A DNA stretch of 64,000 bases from an uncultured bacterium (GTDB taxonomy: Bacteria > Bacteroidota > Ignavibacteria > Kapaibacteriales > UBA2268): contig CALNXW010000016.1 in the NCBI GenBank assembly GCA_942490685.1, positions 105,144 to 169,143 of the forward strand, in the 5' to 3' direction. The notes beneath the pieces are model-generated. The model saw only the letters and a list, made by a program, of their open reading frames with translations, did not search any database and had not been told where the DNA came from. Made by a program: the position numbers and the translations under genes. Below, in pieces: positions 6,754 to 52,511 of the stretch. The first letter of the stretch is position 1, and every line of letters begins with the position of its first letter.

Positions 6754-6785
6754 AAAGGAGTCTTCACACAAAAGACTCCTTTTTC
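6754..6785 (+). terminator. Intrinsic terminator
   Basis: AAAGGAGTCTT/AAGACTCCTTT stem plus T-tract. Confidence 0.8.
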
Positions 6786-6835
6786 TTTGCTAAATTTGTA
6801 ACCTTTACCTACTTTTGTGTGTTATATTAACAGTT

Positions 6836-7360
6836 ATGAAAAAAATACTCGCATATATTATGATATTAGTTTTATTGCTGGGGTCAGTTACTGCTCCGGC
6901 AATATTTTCATTTATGCAGAGTAAAATTAAAAAAGCAGTAAAAAAAACTATATTAGCCGGCATCCCTGAAGAGGATTTGGATGTGCTCAGGATCACTGAT
7001 GCTCAGATGCAGGATGCTCGAATATTTAACTTTGTAGAAGCTCATGAGTTCATTTTCTACGGCAAAATGTATGATATAGTCCGCTCTGAAAAAGCAGGCG
7101 ATACTACTATTTTTTATTGTGTATATGATGACTTAGAAACAAAGTTGGTGCAGCGTTTTGCAGATATTGCAGCAGGAACCATGAATAAATATGGCACCGT
7201 CTTGAACCACATTCTTGATAATATGCTCAAAATTAAAATAATATATAAAGCATTCTCTCTATTTTACGATTTCCTGACTGAAAAACACAACACAATAAGA
7301 TACTTTTCCCCTTTAAATACATATCTCGATGTACCCGTGCCTCCGCCTAAGTTTGGGTAA
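6836..7360 (+). CDS. Conserved hypothetical protein upstream of a TonB receptor, with N-terminal TM and C-terminal PVPPP
   Basis: EFIFYGKMYDIV...CVYDDLETKL motif resembles Bacteroidota genes preceding TonB receptors. TAAATTTG promoter motif at 6791-6798. Confidence 0.6.
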   Translation: MKKILAYIMILVLLLGSVTAPAIFSFMQSKIKKAVKKTILAGIPEEDLDVLRITDAQMQDARIFNFVEAHEFIFYGKMYDIVRSEKAGDTTIFYCVYDDLETKLVQRFADIAAGTMNKYGTVLNHILDNMLKIKIIYKAFSLFYDFLTEKHNTIRYFSPLNTYLDVPVPPPKFG

Positions 7361-7708
7361 ATGACATATAGAAATGAATTGAATATCTAACTTTCAGCAT
7401 TCACTTCTTGAGCGCTTAGCAAAGCCATCCAATTTTGGGTGCACACTGAAAGCGTGAAGGTGTGGATATTGTCTCATAAGCTTAAATTTGAATTTAATTA
7501 TAACTATTTGCAAGTGTAGCAAACGGAAAGATTTTCGAATGCGCAATTGAAAAATGGCACTTATGAGACAAGTTCCAAGTGAAAGTTACAATCTTTTACT
7601 TGAAACAAGTGCTACTAATAAGGCATTTTTACTCTGTTGAGACTGCTTATTAGTGCAAAATGAAAAGATACTATACTGACAAAAAAAAATCAAACTTAGG
7701 TGATTAAA

Positions 7709-9679
7709 ATGAAGAAATTACTTTGTATTGCTGCGCTTGCAGTGATGTCTTTGACTAGTGCAAAAGCATCAGAAAGCGAAGCTGATACTCTAAAAACATA
7801 TAGATTGGGTGCAATTACAGTAACTGATGACAGACTGGAAACAAAAAATATAAGAGAAGCGAAATTTTCGCAAGTCAAATACTATGAACTGCAACGCTCT
7901 GATGCCGCTTCTCTAAATGAAATCAAAGCATTTATCCCGACAGCAAATACACGAACAACCTCTATGGGGGAAACTCAGCTCTATGTTCGTGGAGCAGGTG
8001 ACAGGCAGCTAGGCTTATACCTTGACGGAGCTCTCTTAAATGTACCCTGGGATAATAGATTTGACTTAAACTTTTTGCCCGGTGATGTTATTGGTGAGCT
8101 GAAAGTAAATAAGAATGCCTCATCTGCTCTATATGGTATAAATGTTCTTGGTGGTGCAATTGATATTACTACTGCCGAAAGAAAAGAAGAAGGGTTCGGA
8201 GGAGCTTTCAAAATGATAGGCGGAGACGGAGGAGCTTTCTCTATTTCTGCAATGAACGATGGAAAAATCGGGAATCTGAATTATATAGTCAACTTCTCAC
8301 GAACCGGAAGAGATGGCTTTGTGATGGCTGACAACGATGAGATTTTGCTCAACCAAGACCCGGATGCTGATTTACGTACCAACTCCTATAATTTTAGGAA
8401 TAATATATTTGCTCGTGCTGAGTATACTCTGTCGGAAATGACTAACTTTGGGTTGACTTTTATCAACACTTCAGCTGAATTTGGGAATACGCCCGCAACT
8501 CATGAAGAAGTGAAACAAAGATTCTGGAAATATCCTGAAAGAAACAGGAGCATGATAATTTTTAATGGAGAGCAGTTCTTCGATAATAAAAAAGACTGGT
8601 CTTTAAAATTGACAGCTTGGGGTGATTTCTTTGATCAGAAAATTGAAGAGTATGAAGATGCTACTTACTCTGCAATAGATAAGAGTGTAAAAGATGAAGA
8701 TGCTACTTTTGGTAGCAGACTCACCTTGAATTATAAAATTAGTGACAACTCGACTATTTCTTACGTTTTTAACAGCATTAACTCAAAGCATGATAAAACA
8801 GAGTTTGAAAAAGAAGAATTGAATTTTGAGCAAAACAGCATAAGTACAGGGATGCAGTTCACTTCGAAACTCGGAAATCTTGAGTACGCTTTGGGAGGAA
8901 CATATGACTACTTCAAAACTCCAAAATCAGGAGAGTATATAGAATTTGAAGGTAATAGTTGGGATGATTATGGAGTGTTTGTAACATTAGATTATGCAAT
9001 TGATGATAACTTTACAGCATTTGCAAATGCAAGCAGAAAATCTCGTTTCCCGACGATGAGAGAATCATTTGACGAGGCATTGAATAAATTTAAATTCAAT
9101 CCGGATCTTAAACCTGAAACAGGAGTTTTGTCAGAAGTTGGAGTAGCCTATATCTCTAGTAAGTTTTCTGCGCAAGCCTCCATTTTTGCAAATATGTATG
9201 ATGATATGATCGAAAAAGTCAAAGTGAAAGATGATCCCGAAAAAAGAAAAATGAGGGCAAATCTTGCAGAAGCTACAATTACCGGTATTGATTTATCATT
9301 AGCTGCAAATATCAGTAAGTTTAAACTAGGTGGCTATGTTACACTCATGAGCAGTGATGGCAAGTTAGATGGGGAAGAGGTAGAGCTTAATAACAAGCCT
9401 GAAGTACTTTCAGGTATGCATTTAAGTTATAACACTTCTTTTGGTTTGCTTCCACAGCTTGAACTAGATTATAGAGGTAAACAATATGAAGACGGTATTG
9501 AGATAGATGGTGCTGCCTATGTCAATTTCCGCTTAGGATATACTTTTACTCAGTCAACAGTGTTACTTCCTGAAGTATTTATTCGAGTGAATAATATTTT
9601 TGATACCTTTAGGTACTCTCAATTGGGTATGCCTGAGGCTGGAAGAAGTATTAGTGGCGGATTTTCTCTAAGGATATAG
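7709..9679 (+). CDS. TonB-dependent outer-membrane receptor
   Basis: Signal peptide; plug motifs (LYVRG, LYLDG, SALYG..LGGAI); LKPETG; C-terminal PEAGRSISGGFSLRI. Confidence 0.9.
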   Translation: MKKLLCIAALAVMSLTSAKASESEADTLKTYRLGAITVTDDRLETKNIREAKFSQVKYYELQRSDAASLNEIKAFIPTANTRTTSMGETQLYVRGAGDRQLGLYLDGALLNVPWDNRFDLNFLPGDVIGELKVNKNASSALYGINVLGGAIDITTAERKEEGFGGAFKMIGGDGGAFSISAMNDGKIGNLNYIVNFSRTGRDGFVMADNDEILLNQDPDADLRTNSYNFRNNIFARAEYTLSEMTNFGLTFINTSAEFGNTPATHEEVKQRFWKYPERNRSMIIFNGEQFFDNKKDWSLKLTAWGDFFDQKIEEYEDATYSAIDKSVKDEDATFGSRLTLNYKISDNSTISYVFNSINSKHDKTEFEKEELNFEQNSISTGMQFTSKLGNLEYALGGTYDYFKTPKSGEYIEFEGNSWDDYGVFVTLDYAIDDNFTAFANASRKSRFPTMRESFDEALNKFKFNPDLKPETGVLSEVGVAYISSKFSAQASIFANMYDDMIEKVKVKDDPEKRKMRANLAEATITGIDLSLAANISKFKLGGYVTLMSSDGKLDGEEVELNNKPEVLSGMHLSYNTSFGLLPQLELDYRGKQYEDGIEIDGAAYVNFRLGYTFTQSTVLLPEVFIRVNNIFDTFRYSQLGMPEAGRSISGGFSLRI

Positions 9680-45096: not shown

Positions 45097-45244
45097 TGTA
45101 AAACACTTTATAATATGAAATAAAAAAGTAAATACAATTTACATTATTTCTAAATACTGAAGCTATAATAATCCAAGATTTAATACAAAACGTCCTGTAT
45201 GTAGTACAATTCTATATATATACTGTATAATATAAAGGACGTAT

Positions 45245-46432
45245 TTAATATAAAAATCCAAACATCCATAGAGGTATTTTGTTCTCAAATCCAAATTCAA
45301 TGTCATCACTCACCACGAATGAGTTATCTATCTCTCGAATCTGGTGTTTTTGCTTATTTTTTCCACCAATTTCAAATGTATATTTATCTGCTACTAAAAA
45401 ATCTGATTTATTTGATGAGCAAATTTTGTACTTATGTTTTAATTGATTTAAAAAGAATGTTTCTCTAATATTCCCTATTTCAGGTTTATCGGCAGACAGG
45501 CTATAGCTCAAAGTAGAGTTATTCAAATATATTTTCTCCGGTTTACTTAGGCGTGTGATCCCTTTTTTATTGTCATATAGTGTATTAATTAGTTCAGCTC
45601 TTTCAAGTATATTTATCATCTTCAAAACAGTCTCTCTATTAGTCTTCATCTTTTCTGCGAGTTTTGTAATATTGGGCTTGAAAGGTACGCTCTCTGATAT
45701 AATTGCTAATAATTTTTTCGCTTTAAGAACTGTCTCATAGCTAAACTTTTCTATCAACTGGATATCATTTTCAATAATTATATTTATAATATTATCCAAT
45801 TTTATAGGAACCATTTCAGGTGACTCTATAAAAAACGGATACGCACCGTATCTCAAATAATTTTTGAAATGCTTGATTGGAAGAATCTTTTGATTGATAT
45901 CATGAGCTATTTTTATGTGCCTCTCCAATATTTGCTCCAATGAAAGTACCGGGAATTCAATATTCTCGCTTAACATCAGGTACTCTCGAAAAGACATCGT
46001 CGGCATGCGATATAATATCATCCTTCTACTTAAATCAGCGTTGCCCTTATAAATTTCAAGAATTGAAGAACCCGAAATAACCATTTTCAGTTCAGGGTAA
46101 AAGTCATATATGTTTTTCAACTCGGTTGACCAATTAGGATATTTATGAACTTCATCCAAATATAAATATTTCCCACCACGCATCACGAAATTATCTACTA
46201 AGTCACTTAGCTTATTTTCGGTAAAGTAAATATCGTCTAAAGTGAGATATATGCTTTCGTCAAGTGGCAACTTTGAAAGCATTTGAAGCATCATAGTAGT
46301 TTTACCACTACCTCTGCTTCCAAGAATGCAAATTAATCTAGAATCCTCATTTACTTCTTTAATGAGGGATCTTGCAAAACTGGTATTCAGTTGATTAAGT
46401 CGCCTAAGATATTTAGAATGTAATCTTTCCAT
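45245..46432 (-). CDS. AAA_14/DUF4143-type ATP-binding protein; start moved to ATG 46432
   Basis: Walker A GSRGSGKT, Walker B LYLDEVH, ISGSS, PEKIYL, ETFFLNQL, FEIGGK. A TATATTTG motif (46464-46457, minus strand) overlaps the longer predicted start. Confidence 0.88.
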   Translation of the reverse strand: MERLHSKYLRRLNQLNTSFARSLIKEVNEDSRLICILGSRGSGKTTMMLQMLSKLPLDESIYLTLDDIYFTENKLSDLVDNFVMRGGKYLYLDEVHKYPNWSTELKNIYDFYPELKMVISGSSILEIYKGNADLSRRMILYRMPTMSFREYLMLSENIEFPVLSLEQILERHIKIAHDINQKILPIKHFKNYLRYGAYPFFIESPEMVPIKLDNIINIIIENDIQLIEKFSYETVLKAKKLLAIISESVPFKPNITKLAEKMKTNRETVLKMINILERAELINTLYDNKKGITRLSKPEKIYLNNSTLSYSLSADKPEIGNIRETFFLNQLKHKYKICSSNKSDFLVADKYTFEIGGKNKQKHQIREIDNSFVVSDDIEFGFENKIPLWMFGFLY

Positions 46433-46465
46433 ATCAATATTGCATGTTATAAAGTACAAATATAA

Positions 46466-46500
46466 ATAAAAAACGTCCTTTTAGTAGGACGTTTTTTATA
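46466..46500 (-). terminator. Intrinsic terminator following the duplicated gene end
   Basis: AAAAAACGTCCT/AGGACGTTTTTT stem. Confidence 0.75.
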
Positions 46501-46526
46501 AAAGTAATATTGTTTAAGCAAATAAT

Positions 46527-46668
46527 CTACTCCACTTCAATCTCACCCAAATCAACAACGCCCTTATCAATTTTTATCTTAACAACATTCTCCTGCATTT
46601 TCTGGTTTGGTCTGCCGTAATTAGTATATATTTTGCAGCGAATCTGTGGATCAATACTAGATTTTTGT
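46527..46668 (-). repeat. Orphan duplicate of the last 46 codons and stop of the VIT/DUF2135 gene (attR-like)
   Basis: 142-bp direct repeat of 47613-47754 (offset 1086) with about 6 substitutions; frame preserved. Confidence 0.92.
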
Positions 46669-46699
46669 ATGCGGTGAAAAAAAGTTAGATATTGTATTC

Positions 46700-47356
46700 C
46701 TATAAATTGTTTTTTGAGTAGAAAGTTTCTATTTGAATAATTTTAGTCTCGGTTTTCACTAATTGAGATAAAAAGATATCTATATCATCAGCTAACCAAA
46801 GTAAAAGATTTTTTGAAATATTATTGATTTCTCTTACGTATTTTAGATTCCACACAATCGGCTCATAATGAAAAATTCTGTTCCTAAATTTTCTAATATG
46901 GTTTATAGGGCTACTGACTTTTCGTAATTGCCTGTTTTTTTTCTCTAAGTTAGGAAATGAAAGTCTCAAACTTTTCCATAGAGTAGCTGAGTATTTACTA
47001 TTAAAGAGTGCCGACCAAAATCCAAAAGATAGCTCTGCAACAATCTTATCTTTGTTCAATTTTTCATTCCTACTCAAGATTTTATTTTTAGCAATCATAA
47101 TTTCCTGTTTGAAATCAGGATGCTCTTCTGCGAACTTTTCAAACCATTCAGAGGAATTGTACTTTTTAGATAATTGTAAGTCGATCCGATTTCTCAGAAT
47201 AACTTCGATTAGTGCCAACAGCGGATAAAATGATTGAGACAATTCAATATTTTTTAGATATAATTCTACAGCTAATTCGTTGTCATAAAAGACTCTTTCT
47301 CTATATTTTCTAATTCTGCTTTTCGAAAATAAAATTTCAAAAGTTTCTTGTTGCAT
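46700..47356 (-). CDS. Abi-like (Abi_2/AbiF family) HEPN RNase
   Basis: FSKSRIRKY, LY.KNIELSQSFY..L..IEV.LRN, AELSFGFW, and HEPN motif RNRIFH followed by YEPI. Confidence 0.85.
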   Translation of the reverse strand: MQQETFEILFSKSRIRKYRERVFYDNELAVELYLKNIELSQSFYPLLALIEVILRNRIDLQLSKKYNSSEWFEKFAEEHPDFKQEIMIAKNKILSRNEKLNKDKIVAELSFGFWSALFNSKYSATLWKSLRLSFPNLEKKNRQLRKVSSPINHIRKFRNRIFHYEPIVWNLKYVREINNISKNLLLWLADDIDIFLSQLVKTETKIIQIETFYSKNNL

Positions 47357-47390
47357 ACTAATCCACTTTTTATTATATTATTCTTGCAGT

Positions 47391-47435
47391 CCCGGTAATT
47401 CCTCTCCCGTACTTAGTGACGGTGATGAATCCGGG
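47391..47435 (-). ncRNA. Candidate abiF-type structured RNA (antitoxin or leader hairpin)
   Basis: GC-rich hairpin in ~25% GC DNA, 34 nt upstream of the Abi ATG: CCCGG-ATTC-..-CCGT-cactaagt-ACGG-..-GAAT-ta-CCGGG. TAnnTTTG motifs upstream at 47495-47488 and 47555-47548. Confidence 0.6.
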
Positions 47436-47562
47436 TTTTTTTATTTATAGACAATTATAGATATCTCTTTACATTCCCGACAATATCCAAAAATATATTT
47501 TAATAATTCTGTTTTTTTACTCATTGTTGAACTTATTTGTGCTTTGTCAAAAGTACTGCGAA

Positions 47563-47596
47563 TAAAAAAAACGCCCTGCAAGCAGAACGTTTTGTT
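47563..47596 (-). terminator. Intrinsic terminator of the VIT/DUF2135 gene
   Basis: AACGTTCTGC/GCAGGGCGTT stem with G:U pairs plus T-tract. Confidence 0.65.
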
Positions 47597-47612
47597 TAAT
47601 AGTTAAATCTTG

Positions 47613-50600
47613 TTACTCCACTTCAATCTCACCCAAATCAACAATGCCCTTATCAATTTCTATCTTTACAACATTCTCCTGCATTTTCTGGTTTGGTTTG
47701 CCGTAATTAGTATATATTTTGCAGCGAATCTGTGGATCAATGCTAGATTTTTGTCTACTATTGCCATAAAAGTTGGCTTTTATTTTATATTTTCCAGGAA
47801 GTGCATCTTTTATCATGTATACTTCAGGACCGTAGCCTCTAGTCATATCTTCACTCAAAAATCCACCTCTTTTGGTATACCTTTTACCATAGTAGCATTT
47901 TGTACTATCCGGTTCTATTACCCAAAGATCAAGATCAGTTTCGTCCATCACCCAAGTGACCTCAATTCTTAAATCTACAGGAGATTTGAAAATATAATCC
48001 TGATTATAATTTGAGATATTGATTTTATCTTTATGCTTATCTAAGAGTGCATTGAATTCAGTAATCAGAGTAGTTCTAATACCTGAATATTCCCAAGCTA
48101 TATCTCTTGTAAATAGATTATAGAGCGAATCAGCAGCTGCCTGATATTCGCCAAGTTCAGCTAAGCATAAAGCATAATCTCTAAAACTTTGAGGCTCTTC
48201 AGCTCTGATTTTTAGAATATGTTTGTAAATACTTTTTGCAAAATCATATTCCTTATGTTCCATCATAAAACCTGCAACACGTCTAAGATTTTCATGATCT
48301 TCCAGATTTATTTCCGCCAAATTAGAAATAACTCTGCATGCTTCTTTTATTTTGCCGCTCTTCTCAAAAACCTTTGCAGCATCAAAAAAGAAAGAAGGAT
48401 TCATTTGATTGTTTTTTCTAAGCTCAAAATAAGTATCTTCTAGTTCTCCCAAAGCAGCTGAACTAAGTTCTTTGTAGTATTCTTTTGAGGATTGGTATTC
48501 TTCTGTAGCAACAACTGCATTTGCAAATGGTTCTTGAGTATCCGGAAAATACTTACTTCCGCCTATTCCCATCCCACCGGTAAACTTCTCACCAAAATTC
48601 AATCCATTAACTAGAATCTGATCATCTTCGTGACGTGAACCTCTGACACTAAAGCCAGCGCCACTATTAGTAACTCCTGCCTTCATTGATATCGCATCAA
48701 CAATGTTTTCATTTGCAACCATTTCTCTATTTGCTGTTACAAACAAAGGTAGTGTATTTAGAACTTTATCTATCATTTTGACTTCAATATATTTATCTTC
48801 TTTTGGATTTATATTAGTGAGTACTTTTTTTCTTTTTGCAACGTGACTAAATTCAAGATCGAAGCTATCCAGCAAATTGCTATTTAGCACAAACATACCG
48901 GAGGGTTTTGTTTTAGCTCCATGTTTTGTTCCTAGTATTCTGACGGTAACTCCCGGAAGAGGTTTGTTATTCGCATCCATAACCCTGCCTATCAGAATAC
49001 TTTCGGGTAAATCATAAATTGCGGAACAATTCATAATTTTATATTTTAAACTGTGCCCCTCTGCAAGATAATCATAGCTTGTATTTGGAATTCGAAATAC
49101 AATCATCTGATCAAAATGATTTTCTAAATCTTGGCAAGGTATAGTATATTTAATAAACTTACCATCATCAGATAGACTTAAAGGACCTTCTTTATCTATC
49201 TGCCAGGAGCTCACACTATCAATCAATGAAAACTTGACTTCAATGGAATCTACTTGTTCAATATCATTTTGTTCCAGTTCATCTTCGCTGATATAACAAA
49301 AGTTGCGACCACGATTATAATAAGTAGTGGATAATTCAGATTCCAAGTTTGAGGATATGCTATTATCATTAGAATACACTGTGATATCTCCAATTCTAAA
49401 TTTGCTTCTATCTATATGACTTAGACCAATCTTTAAAGATTTTCTGTTCTCATTATACCAATTACTATTGAGGTCACTAATTGAAACAAAAGTATAAAGT
49501 CCCATATCCGGTTTCTCTTTTTTCAGCATACTAACTACTTCTGAATATAATTCCTTATCTCGTCTTGATAAGAAAGATTGCGACAAGTTTTCCATATAAT
49601 TTTGATTATCAATTGCTATAGCAGAATTTTTGATAAAGTATATTTTTGATAAATCTAAAGAGCTACTATCATCAGCAATTTTGATTGCAATTTTACCATG
49701 AATTTCAGCTATTTGATCTTTATATTTGTCTCGTATTTTGTTCTTATTCTCTTGATATGGTAGAGAAGATACATAGTAGATACCGTCTAAGTTTATACTA
49801 TTCTTTTTGAAAATATTTGTTCCACTTAAATATCTAAAATGACTCTCACAGTAATAATCATTCCTAGGTCTGCGCAAATAATTTAGATAATTATTCAGCA
49901 TCTTAGAACTATCTAAATCTCCTTGAGATAGATCATAAAAATACTTTTCACGATACTTATTATTTCTATAAATACTATCATTCTTAGTATTTTGATATTC
50001 ATAATCCCACGACAAATCAGTATACTTGAAAAACATATTATTATATTCTGCATATCCAGGTAGTAAAGAATCTAAATCAATAGCTGTTACTAACTCTTCA
50101 TCAGGAGTAGTCGTTATTTGTTTATAGTGTGAAGCGACTAAACTACTTACTTCTTTTGTATATTGCTTCCACTTATCTACTAAATCAAGATTTTTTTCTG
50201 ATAAGAAATAAGCACCATCTTTTACCAGATATAATTTGCTATAGTATTCAATGAGGTCAGCTTGTCTGATTTCAATTTTTAAAATAGAATCTTTATAATA
50301 ATTGATTTCTTTTCGATATTTATATTTTCTATCCAAACCATATTTGTATTTGTAATAAGAATTTGCAACAAAAGAAAGATTCTCTAATTTCTCTCCTACA
50401 GGATCTCTCATTTCGAAGCTAGAAGTATGTCTAGATGTAAATCTTTGCAGCCCATAATTTCCATAATATCCATAATATCCATAATTCCTGACACTGAAAA
50501 TAGAATCGTTAATTAGTACTTCTCGTATAGGCAAGCTGCGATAGTATTCCGGATACTCTTCATTGTATTTACTTAGCACATTATAATGAATATTTTTATG

Positions 50601-52511
50601 CTGACTAAAATCAAAATCCGGCAATAATTCCTTTAAATCAATAACATAATAAGCTTTATCATCAGACATTACATCCATATTTTGTATTATTTTTCCCACT
50701 TTGGTATCAAGTATTCTATAACAAGAATCTAGATATTGCACTTCCTTAAAATCTAAACTATGCCATAATTTCAAATCTTTTATCTGTTGGAGTACAGTAT
50801 TCTTTAAGTTTTCAATTCGTCTAAGACTATCAGCTTCTAAATCCCTATTATACCTAGCATAATACTCTTCCATTGCTGTTGCCAAACTATCATACTCCTC
50901 TCTCATCTCCGCCGGCGGCTCAATCTTATAACCATAGTAATCCCATGCTGTTTCTAAAACAATCAGTGAAGTGAAGGCAGTTACTAAAGAGTATTTTTTG
51001 CCTAACACTGTGATTTCTTTTTCGTTTTGTGTTTGATTTAAATTCAAGTCTGCCAGCTTCTGTTTTGCCCAGATTTTATGAAGGATGCCCGAGTTTGTGC
51101 GATTGCTCTCAGTAATGTTAATTGGAATCGTTTTAGTTACTTGATTGCCGTAACCAAATTTTAGCTTTAGCTGCGAACTTGATTGCATCTTACCTGAGAT
51201 ATTGATATTTCCTTTTACTACTTCATTTTTTGGATAAACTTCACTAGCTGCGCCCTCTATACCTAAGAAATAAGGGAATGAGTATGTGAGTAGATTTAGG
51301 GCTTGATTAATGTCATCATTTGTTAGATTTATATACTCGCCTCCTGTTTTTCCAGCCATATTGCGGCATGCATCATGATCAGATATAGAAGAACTATTGA
51401 TGATATACATAGGTTTTTGAGACTCATCAAAGCTGCCTTCGCCAATATTATTTATACCGTCAGAGAAAATGAATATCTCATCGCCACGAAGCTTGCTTAG
51501 ATCAACTGAACTGTAATTTGTAGCACCGTCAATTCTGAGTCCGTTTATATTTGCTTCTATCTCATCAAAATCTGCATTTTCGAAATATATTGGTTTATCA
51601 GCATAAAGGCTGAATGGTACCAGTTCTACGTTACATTTGTTGTACTTTAAGTATGCTTCCAAAAGCTCTAAATCTTTTTTGATATCTGAATTTAAGCGAG
51701 AAGCAGATATATCCCAAAGTACACTAATCGTATTTGGTTTTGCCTTGGGTTTCAGCATCATGTCCGGATTAAGAGAGATGCGGAAGAAATCCTCATTATT
51801 GTACGTCTCAAGCTGAACGCTCTCTTCTCCAAAATGAGGAATAATAAACTCATAAAGTTCCTTTGCCTGATAATCAGTATACTCAGACATCAATGTATAA
51901 GCCCCATTAGCTTTTCCGAACTTTGAATTATCCGAGCTGTTGTTAATTGGCTCTGCAAAATCTGAGTAAATCGTAGCTCTGAAACTAAACGAATCCAGCT
52001 TGTTTGGCATATCCAGCGGCAAAGAGTATTTCAAGCCATCCGGTGTAAGCGTAAGTTCTTCTTCATAAGCAATTACAATATGCTTCTCCTTTTTAGAAAA
52101 TAGTGGATATACTCTAGAACGGAAGTTGTTTCCGCGAGTAACCTCGAGCAAGCCGGGATCAACACGACGGTTAACAATCTTTTCGTAAGTCACTCTCCCT
52201 TTTTCCTTTTCAACTATTACGCCCTCACGCAATTTCTCATTCACATCCATAGCAAAGCGGGATACCACCACACCTTCAGCTAAAGGAAAGTCAAGCTGAC
52301 CTTCCAGAGTTCTGTCATGCGGATTGTAGAAGTGTAAATCATAGGTTGTAATTGCGAGTGAACCAACAATTTTTACATCAACTTTTGCTTTTTTAATTGG
52401 CAAAGTAAAGTCCTTTTCCGCCTCAGTAACAGTAATAGAAGGCATGCCTGATTGTGAAAAAACAGGCACTGCCATCAGCATTATAACTATCAATATTTGT
52501 ATCGTTTTCAT
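47613..52511 (-). CDS. Giant secreted protein: VIT, vWA-like, TPR/DUF2135 C-terminus, carboxypeptidase-regulatory-like domain, and a ~570-aa Tyr/Lys-rich insert
   Basis: Signal peptide; LEGQLDFPL, VDPGLLE, VLWDISAS, FSDG, SLVTAFTSLIVLE; W..DETDLDLWVIEP, DMTRGYGPE, NFYG. Confidence 0.85.
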   Translation of the reverse strand: MKTIQILIVIMLMAVPVFSQSGMPSITVTEAEKDFTLPIKKAKVDVKIVGSLAITTYDLHFYNPHDRTLEGQLDFPLAEGVVVSRFAMDVNEKLREGVIVEKEKGRVTYEKIVNRRVDPGLLEVTRGNNFRSRVYPLFSKKEKHIVIAYEEELTLTPDGLKYSLPLDMPNKLDSFSFRATIYSDFAEPINNSSDNSKFGKANGAYTLMSEYTDYQAKELYEFIIPHFGEESVQLETYNNEDFFRISLNPDMMLKPKAKPNTISVLWDISASRLNSDIKKDLELLEAYLKYNKCNVELVPFSLYADKPIYFENADFDEIEANINGLRIDGATNYSSVDLSKLRGDEIFIFSDGINNIGEGSFDESQKPMYIINSSSISDHDACRNMAGKTGGEYINLTNDDINQALNLLTYSFPYFLGIEGAASEVYPKNEVVKGNINISGKMQSSSQLKLKFGYGNQVTKTIPINITESNRTNSGILHKIWAKQKLADLNLNQTQNEKEITVLGKKYSLVTAFTSLIVLETAWDYYGYKIEPPAEMREEYDSLATAMEEYYARYNRDLEADSLRRIENLKNTVLQQIKDLKLWHSLDFKEVQYLDSCYRILDTKVGKIIQNMDVMSDDKAYYVIDLKELLPDFDFSQHKNIHYNVLSKYNEEYPEYYRSLPIREVLINDSIFSVRNYGYYGYYGNYGLQRFTSRHTSSFEMRDPVGEKLENLSFVANSYYKYKYGLDRKYKYRKEINYYKDSILKIEIRQADLIEYYSKLYLVKDGAYFLSEKNLDLVDKWKQYTKEVSSLVASHYKQITTTPDEELVTAIDLDSLLPGYAEYNNMFFKYTDLSWDYEYQNTKNDSIYRNNKYREKYFYDLSQGDLDSSKMLNNYLNYLRRPRNDYYCESHFRYLSGTNIFKKNSINLDGIYYVSSLPYQENKNKIRDKYKDQIAEIHGKIAIKIADDSSSLDLSKIYFIKNSAIAIDNQNYMENLSQSFLSRRDKELYSEVVSMLKKEKPDMGLYTFVSISDLNSNWYNENRKSLKIGLSHIDRSKFRIGDITVYSNDNSISSNLESELSTTYYNRGRNFCYISEDELEQNDIEQVDSIEVKFSLIDSVSSWQIDKEGPLSLSDDGKFIKYTIPCQDLENHFDQMIVFRIPNTSYDYLAEGHSLKYKIMNCSAIYDLPESILIGRVMDANNKPLPGVTVRILGTKHGAKTKPSGMFVLNSNLLDSFDLEFSHVAKRKKVLTNINPKEDKYIEVKMIDKVLNTLPLFVTANREMVANENIVDAISMKAGVTNSGAGFSVRGSRHEDDQILVNGLNFGEKFTGGMGIGGSKYFPDTQEPFANAVVATEEYQSSKEYYKELSSAALGELEDTYFELRKNNQMNPSFFFDAAKVFEKSGKIKEACRVISNLAEINLEDHENLRRVAGFMMEHKEYDFAKSIYKHILKIRAEEPQSFRDYALCLAELGEYQAAADSLYNLFTRDIAWEYSGIRTTLITEFNALLDKHKDKINISNYNQDYIFKSPVDLRIEVTWVMDETDLDLWVIEPDSTKCYYGKRYTKRGGFLSEDMTRGYGPEVYMIKDALPGKYKIKANFYGNSRQKSSIDPQIRCKIYTNYGKPNQKMQENVVKIEIDKGIVDLGEIEVE

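Follow-up and report, generated by a model that had tools for sequence, protein, structure and literature searches.

A 1.09-kb islet in the 64-kb window analysed here (contig CALNXW010000016.1 of an uncultured Bacteroidota bacterium, positions 105,144 to 169,143) carries a single abortive-infection (Abi) gene with its leader and is enclosed by two copies of the 3′ end of a host gene. The islet bears the footprint of an insertion and belongs to a known general kind, in which a gene end is duplicated around cargo at a hotspot. Its less ordinary features are the minimal, recombinase-less insert and an AbiF-like unit whose RNA is absent from Rfam. We favour the reading that host recombination captured the islet from a donor about 4% diverged, and give it an even chance of being correct. 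All coordinates are those of the whole window, and the features of the islet and of the host gene are read on the minus strand. Four other species of the same genus (G001, G002, G003 and G004) were used as sister species, and L-numbers denote the homologous loci compared.

The host gene (47613..52511) was assigned from its open reading frame (ORF) and Pfam matches. It encodes a 1632-residue secreted VIT/CarboxypepD_reg/TPR/DUF2135 protein (VIT, 3.8e-23; CarbopepD_reg_2, 3.9e-10; DUF2135, 1.8e-9, residues 1570-1615). A repeat search returned a direct repeat of 141 nucleotides (nt), 46528-46668 and 47614-47754, with 96% identity and an offset of 1086 nt. Base comparison of 46527-46668 with 47613-47754 gave 136 of 142 identical positions, confirming the duplication that a preliminary description of this DNA had claimed over these intervals. 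The six differences, at 46527, 46559, 46574, 46581, 46612 and 46656, leave identical runs of 43, 31, 30, 14, 12 and 6 nt. Translation reproduced the codon changes listed in that description, AGC/AGT, K/R, GTA/GTT, E/K, I/V and TAA/TAG. A search of the whole 4.43-Mb genome found exactly two copies of the repeat, both within one 3.28-Mb contig. Each copy is the nearest relative of the other, at 96% identity compared to at most 78% with any of 11 ends from other species, which indicates that both come from one lineage.

The proximal copy (47613..47754) supplies the functional last 46 codons and TAA stop of the host gene, and begins inside the DUF2135 domain at residue 1587. The distal copy (46527..46668) corresponds to the same last 46 codons, followed by a TAG stop, and reads the same peptide with K-to-R, E-to-K and I-to-V changes. 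Its first in-frame ATG gives merely 24 residues, leaving no usable ORF, and its E-to-K change falls at a site invariant in 13 other ends (the proximal copy, 11 sister-species ends and G001). Because of these two features the distal copy is read as an orphan; its sequence fits a dead, non-coding relic.

Only the Abi gene and its leader lie between the copies, as first described: a gene of 218 codons (46700..47356) and a leader of 256 nt. The interior of the islet has a GC content of 29.6%, compared to 34.8% for the window. A spacer of 31 nt (46669..46699) connects the abi stop codon to the distal copy and carries the sole non-homologous joint, at 46668/46669, where the identity between the two loci drops from 96% to a random level of 27%. 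Homology extending upstream of the repeat was considered and rejected, as identity there is 27%. ORF and domain annotation bears out the earlier statement that the islet encodes no recombinase. None was found among the annotated neighbours either, which include FBPase, GcvT, an S24 peptidase and T9SS-tailed proteins. Generic tyrosine recombinases occur elsewhere in the genome. No cognate integrase for the repeat was identified.

Each copy is followed by a hairpin called in a terminator scan. The hairpin after the proximal copy (47568..47593) has the form AAAACGTTCTGC-TT-GCAGGGCGTTTT with a T run, and that after the distal copy (46466..46499) has the form AAAAAACGTCCT-ACTAAA-AGGACGTTTTTT. The shared pattern AAACGTYCT..AGRRCGTTT has exactly two sites in 4.43 Mb, one after each copy, so the related terminators noted previously are not a chance resemblance. 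The possibility of a generic genome-wide motif was likewise rejected, as the hairpin type occurs in this genome solely at this locus; in relatives it follows terminal DUF2135 genes. The proximal hairpin is of the same type as the one after the terminal DUF2135 gene in G001, the AAAACGTTCT type, and the distal hairpin resembles that of G002. Since the proximal copy bears a terminal-type hairpin, it appears to be the terminal-type end of another allele and not an internal member of a gene array. The window carries two alleles of a gene end plus hairpin terminator, whose spacers and terminators differ strongly, the spacers being barely alignable.

Across the genus, the gap that separates the terminal VIT/DUF2135 gene from the following core gene acts as a variable hotspot. 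It is empty in G004, which has six tandem paralogs and neither an ATPase nor an Abi gene; it holds an AAA_14/DUF4143 ATPase in G002 and G003, and the ATPase together with the Abi gene in the window. G001 has one VIT/DUF2135 gene with a different flank. In G002 and G003 the gene end runs straight into the same ATPase, and the Abi gene is absent. The preliminary description had proposed to look for empty-site alleles; empty arrangements thus exist at the species level. The distal copy sits exactly at the gene-end position of G002 and G003, and the downstream flank is colinear with both. As the gene end adjoins the ATPase in these species with no Abi gene between them, the distal copy occupies the ancestral position.

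The ATPase (45245..46459, minus strand; likely start ATG at 46432, 395 residues) is a second accessory unit at the hotspot and is PDC-S01-like in PADLOC (PDC-S01, 1.7e-27; Pfam AAA_14, 1.5e-27). It is 94% identical to its G002 counterpart at the nucleotide level, compared to 74-79% for the outer flanks. The segment from the stop codon to the ATPase ATG, with the distal hairpin, is 92.6% identical to G002, and the gene end 76%. By these sequence comparisons, the ATPase is a recently shared accessory unit with its left edge at the stop codon. The repeat ends sharply at that stop because identity to G002 jumps there and different spacer and terminator alleles follow each copy. Downstream of the ATPase lies an ancestral long-loop hairpin (ACGTCCT...AGGACGT; 45190..45242, minus strand), whose ortholog in G004 is the single hairpin behind the terminal DUF2135 gene. 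The genome has just two ACGTCC..GGACGT hairpins, and they delimit the ATPase unit (45190-46526).

Three features lead us to favour capture by host recombination: the 96% identical coding repeat beside barely alignable spacers, the terminal-type terminator after the proximal copy and the single abrupt joint at 46668/46669. The proximal allele completes the host gene and is then followed by a full AbiF-like unit of promoter-like site, structured RNA and HEPN gene. The donor of the Abi unit would have belonged to the same lineage or to a very close one, with a gene end about 4% diverged and a very different spacer and terminator. Fixation would have been the work of the host's own recombination and not of a dedicated recombinase. 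Two events would have been required, a homologous exchange within the DUF2135 gene or within its 141-nt end and an illegitimate joint at 46668/46669. Two routes are equally possible. Linear DNA may have entered by homology-facilitated illegitimate recombination with a one-sided anchor, or a small circle carrying the gene end and the Abi unit may have integrated by a Campbell-type single crossover. The mirror order, in which the Abi unit was resident and the ATPase unit arrived with a hitch-hiking gene end, is an equally possible history. Of the earlier proposal of an insertion with gene-end replacement, the insertion footprint stands, given the relic copy and the lack of an Abi gene in G002 and G003, while replacement is indistinguishable from the mirror scenario. 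The relic would date and orient the event. Once in place, the identical runs of 43, 31 and 30 nt would allow rare RecA-dependent loss of the islet, and RNA-toxin addiction could select against that loss.

Homology-facilitated illegitimate recombination is documented mainly in transformation experiments, and to our knowledge neither it nor Campbell-type crossover routinely carries any particular defence cassette. Both would yield the architecture seen here. An anchor with an illegitimate joint, or a circle with a short homology, leaves foreign DNA flanked by the anchor with no dedicated recombinase. The islet would then be a clean, small case of a single-gene defence module entering a chromosome without a recombinase of its own and leaving the neighbouring gene intact.

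Several points weigh against capture by host recombination. A single locus underlies both the direction of the event and the type of recombination proposed, and the small circle is a postulate. Recombination of this sort usually replaces or deletes sequence and does not duplicate it. In addition, a block of 12 identical nt, ACAAAAATCTAG, lies at the left (upstream) edge of the repeat and all six differences are found to the right of it, an arrangement that is also expected from a site-specific crossover at a short core.

This last point favours a decayed site-specific integrative element, an origin that we consider rather unlikely. Such an element would have brought its own copy of the gene 3′ end, inserted itself at a short core, in the manner of e14 in icd, and later lost all but the Abi unit by internal deletions; a related integrase could still move it in trans. 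The direct repeats bounding the islet at a gene 3′ end have the classic architecture of an attL/attR gene-end duplication, the sister species provide empty sites, and defence genes are commonly found beside att sites. Precedents are familiar. The insertion of e14 and phage 21 in Escherichia coli icd leaves an icdC relic, and islands in tRNA genes likewise duplicate gene 3′ ends. The icd-type insertions also share with the islet the use of a gene 3′ end, a near-identical incoming end with mostly conservative changes and an orphan end of about 140-165 nt beyond the cargo. However, they have their own integrase and span tens of kilobases, whereas the islet has 1.09 kb, one gene and no recombinase. 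A closer likeness in this respect is found in the cis-mobilisable elements (CIMEs), which are integrase-less and att-flanked at the 3′ end of fda in Streptococcus thermophilus. Like them, the islet lacks an integrase, has direct repeats at a gene 3′ end and could be excised or moved in trans. The repeats of CIMEs, however, are short identical att cores of the integrase of a known integrative and conjugative element, whereas the repeat in the window is 141 nt long and 4% diverged.

Other observations speak against decay from a larger element. Neither the islet nor the annotated flanks hold an integrase or excisionase, and the genome has no further repeat copy or core-flanked element. The abi stop is followed after only 31 nt by the distal copy, and between the proximal stop and the leader there are about 45 nt, made up of spacer and hairpin; decay to this state would take two very tidy deletions. 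Moreover, the proximal hairpin is of the locus's own terminator type and is not foreign sequence.

The distal copy could instead be what is left of a tandem paralog. The ancestor would have had two adjacent VIT/DUF2135 genes, and the body of the downstream one would have been deleted or replaced by the Abi unit, leaving its last 141 nt. The sister species carry one to six tandem paralogs of this gene, whereas the genome of the window has one copy. Head-to-tail arrays are formed by the three paralogs of G003 (L017, 4537-18050) and the six of G004 (L018/L019). Paralogs in these arrays are spaced by 15-25 nt and are mosaic: segments of different paralogs share between 50% and 99% identity. Neighbouring paralogs can be closely alike: G004_1 and G004_2 are 90-99% identical over stretches. 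We nevertheless regard this origin as quite improbable. Array paralogs start 15-25 nt after the preceding stop codon and have no terminator between them, whereas here the proximal copy precedes a terminal-type hairpin, of which the genome has only two. A tblastn search of the islet interior showed no trace of a paralog start or body, and the remnant would have to end exactly where an unrelated unit starts.

Defence genes do occur as integron cassettes (bioRxiv 10.1101/2024.07.02.601686), which raises the possibility that an integron integrase placed the Abi unit at a secondary site as a gene cassette. Homologous Abi units of the same size, about 1 kb, and with the same leader RNA lie between attC sites, many of them in same-orientation arrays (L040, L068, L070, L076, L088 and L097), and an RYYYAAC-like box (ATCTAAC) occurs 10-16 nt after the abi stop of the window, where attC sites start in those cassettes. 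By our own estimate, however, a single 7-mer match of this kind is expected by chance in about one in five such spacers. No attC-like palindrome follows abi in the window, where 31 nt lead into coding-derived sequence. Integron recombination leaves no 141-nt duplication of its target, and matches to the integron integrase model TIGR02249 in the genome were all below the cut-off. We consider this origin very improbable. An assembly artefact is hardly credible: an independent contig of 1291 nt (ERR9670067, found via an exact look-up of the ATPase) is 100% identical to 45220-46510, with one end inside each hairpin and the nearer end 17 nt short of the distal copy, and is uninformative on the repeat junction, whereas the copies differ at six sites, have different stop codons and unique flanks inside a 3.28-Mb contig, and artefactual duplications are normally identical.

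The Abi protein (218 residues) is an AbiD/AbiF-like HEPN protein. Its match to Pfam Abi_2 (PF07751) has 20.8 bits and an E-value of 5e-4, below the gathering cut-off of 25.6, and PADLOC matched it at 1e-16 to PD-T4-5, an Abi_2 system. Fourteen of its 20 nearest relatives match Abi_2 at E<0.01, and by transitivity, on these sequence matches, the protein is a distant member of the family. The HEPN motif R-[NHD]-x3-H is present as RNRIFH at residues 158-163, and Arg158, Asn159 and His163 are invariant in 20 homologs. The AlphaFold model is all-helical, with a predicted local distance difference test score (pLDDT) of 94.

The leader of abi contains a promoter-like site followed by a structured RNA. 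The site, TTGTCG-18-TATAAT (47454..47483, minus strand), comes from a consensus scan alone and lies just upstream of the RNA motif; it is a putative promoter. In the leader alignment, a TATAAA box ahead of an A run is conserved in homologs. The RNA motif (47374..47445, minus strand) has the layout AAAAACCCGG-UUCAUCAYC-[inner hairpin]-GAGAGGA-nnn-CCGGG, with an outer stem CCCGG/CCGGG, an inner stem CCGU/ACGG and the invariant loops UUCAUCAYC and GAGAGGA. We built a covariance model, R1, from 49 distinct motif copies. It matched the leader with 83.7 bits and an E-value of 3e-18, and this was its one match in the window. Across the motif copies, 99.8% of cells are paired, compensatory changes are seen in 7 of 9 pairs and none of 500 shuffles was as good. 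The outer stem occurs as CCCGG/CCGGG, CCCAG/CTGGG and GCTGC/GCAGC.

Of 85 homologous loci, 66 had a match to a regular expression for the motif, 31-84 nt before the start codon. R1 then recovered it in all 16 of the regex-missed loci submitted, and the three loci with less than 50 nt of upstream sequence were unassessable. The model also detected the motif on Pseudomonas and Pantoea plasmids. The motif thus accompanies this Abi subfamily, from Bacteroidota to Pseudomonas and Pantoea plasmids, in nearly every locus with enough upstream sequence. No family in Rfam 15 matched the leader RNA. The weak matches to sau-6072 and OrzO-P cover the terminator hairpin only and were set aside. In one genome of the same family, L151 (G011:C4) has the motif at 6759-6832, with a weakened outer stem and a DUF1016/YhcG PDDEXK nuclease gene downstream (6923-7990) in place of an Abi gene. 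This arrangement may reflect a swapped effector or an orphaned RNA.

From this analysis, the probable function of the Abi unit is an AbiF-type role in abortive infection, as a type III-like toxin-antitoxin module. AbiF proteins are HEPN toxins of the Abi_2 family restrained by a cis-encoded RNA antitoxin, as in AbiF/AbiFr and RCd22-AbiFCd, and this type III-like arrangement has been proposed as an ancestor of Cas13 (bioRxiv 10.1101/2025.04.15.648962; PMC12737573). By analogy, the cis RNA in the window would bind and restrain the HEPN RNase. The suggestion in the preliminary description that an RNA antitoxin might be involved gains support from the covarying structured RNA ahead of this Abi family, both in the window and at nearly all assessable loci. 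The likeness to AbiF lies in a small Abi_2/HEPN protein with an Rx4H motif, a same-strand upstream structured RNA under its own promoter-like site and an occurrence that is common on mobile DNA.

There are also clear differences. The RNA in the window is one two-tier hairpin of about 48 nt, whereas AbiF has two abiF motifs of 33-37 nt. The Rfam abiF motif, RF03085, had no match at E<=10 on the leader and none at E<=1 on homolog and plasmid loci. The terminator scan called no terminator between the RNA motif and the abi ATG. A Foldseek search of the model against the PDB gave nothing at E<0.001, with the solved PbAbiF structure (8VZ6) not among the matches, and sequence and profile searches against PDB sequences returned no informative match. 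The unit also departs from a classical, ToxIN-like type III system, as it has one motif copy, no tandem repeats and no terminator before the toxin gene. Two further points count against the RNA-antitoxin interpretation. The strand of the RNA is ambiguous, since the hairpin with a T run on the opposite strand looks like a terminator, and RNA-protein binding and toxicity are presumptive. The association of this Abi_2 subfamily with a structured RNA absent from Rfam extends the picture of AbiF as a Cas13 ancestor to Bacteroidota, integron cassettes and proteobacterial plasmids.

The relatives of the unit are distant and scattered. The closest relative of the Abi protein has at most 43% identity among 5.8 billion proteins, and the cluster of the window protein has one member. 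An exact look-up of the protein gave no match, and a single-protein scan of genome contigs gave one distant match; an exact look-up of a 182-residue flank protein also gave no match. The Abi gene is patchy, with occurrences in 20 of 401 genomes of the phylum, none in the four sister species and none in a further 36 genomes from the same family and order. This patchiness and the low GC content of the islet interior point to a foreign cargo. The earlier idea that the cassette spreads by recombination with a conserved DUF2135 end finds no support here: no relative exceeds 43% identity, and no DUF2135 neighbour was seen in about 100 homologous loci, for which neighbour annotation was not systematic.

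Homologs of the Abi gene are found as single genes between housekeeping genes, in 496 plasmid records, in a few phage records and often as integron cassettes. In the cassette-type loci named above, attC-like palindromes (..TAAC...GTTR..) lie 0.8-1.6 kb apart, with small same-orientation ORFs resembling toxin-antitoxin genes around the Abi and RNA unit. Non-palindromic direct repeats of local sequence (37-251 nt) bracket the Abi unit of about 1 kb in roughly 10 of 48 loci with adequate flanks, compared to 2 of 55 control positions chosen outside attC arrays. In L066, a 250-nt stretch comprising the promoter of a Fic gene and its first 58 codons is duplicated on either side of the unit, and the coding part is identical in both copies. 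This locus also has an apparent first half of an attC site after the abi stop. In L066 (3340-4951), L080 (3618-4837) and L023 (6234-7346), the gene immediately downstream of the Abi homolog belongs to the Fic family. An apparent gene-end duplication in L138 (G183) was rejected as a relic because the paralogous ORF continues. The recurrence of bracketing repeats is suggestive, and some of the events are perhaps homologous and not independent, as L066 and L080 both involve Fic.

A broader interpretation, which we put forward as distinctly unlikely, is that AbiF-like units of RNA and HEPN gene, about 1 kb in size, form a class of recombinase-less mobile cassettes. They would move as small circles or fragments with captured host sequence and integrate by a single homologous crossover. 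Each integration would then leave a direct local duplication, of a gene 3′ end in the window, of a Fic 5′ end in L066 and of intergenic sequence in L061, L080 and L084. RNA-toxin addiction would guard the cassette against loss by recombination between the repeats, and the same units would also circulate as integron cassettes. Should the bracketing duplications elsewhere share one mechanism, they would amount to a new, very simple way for cassettes to move. In genus g101 (L130-L134, L141 and L146), several species have truncated Abi homologs that comprise residues 1-115 only and may be decaying copies.

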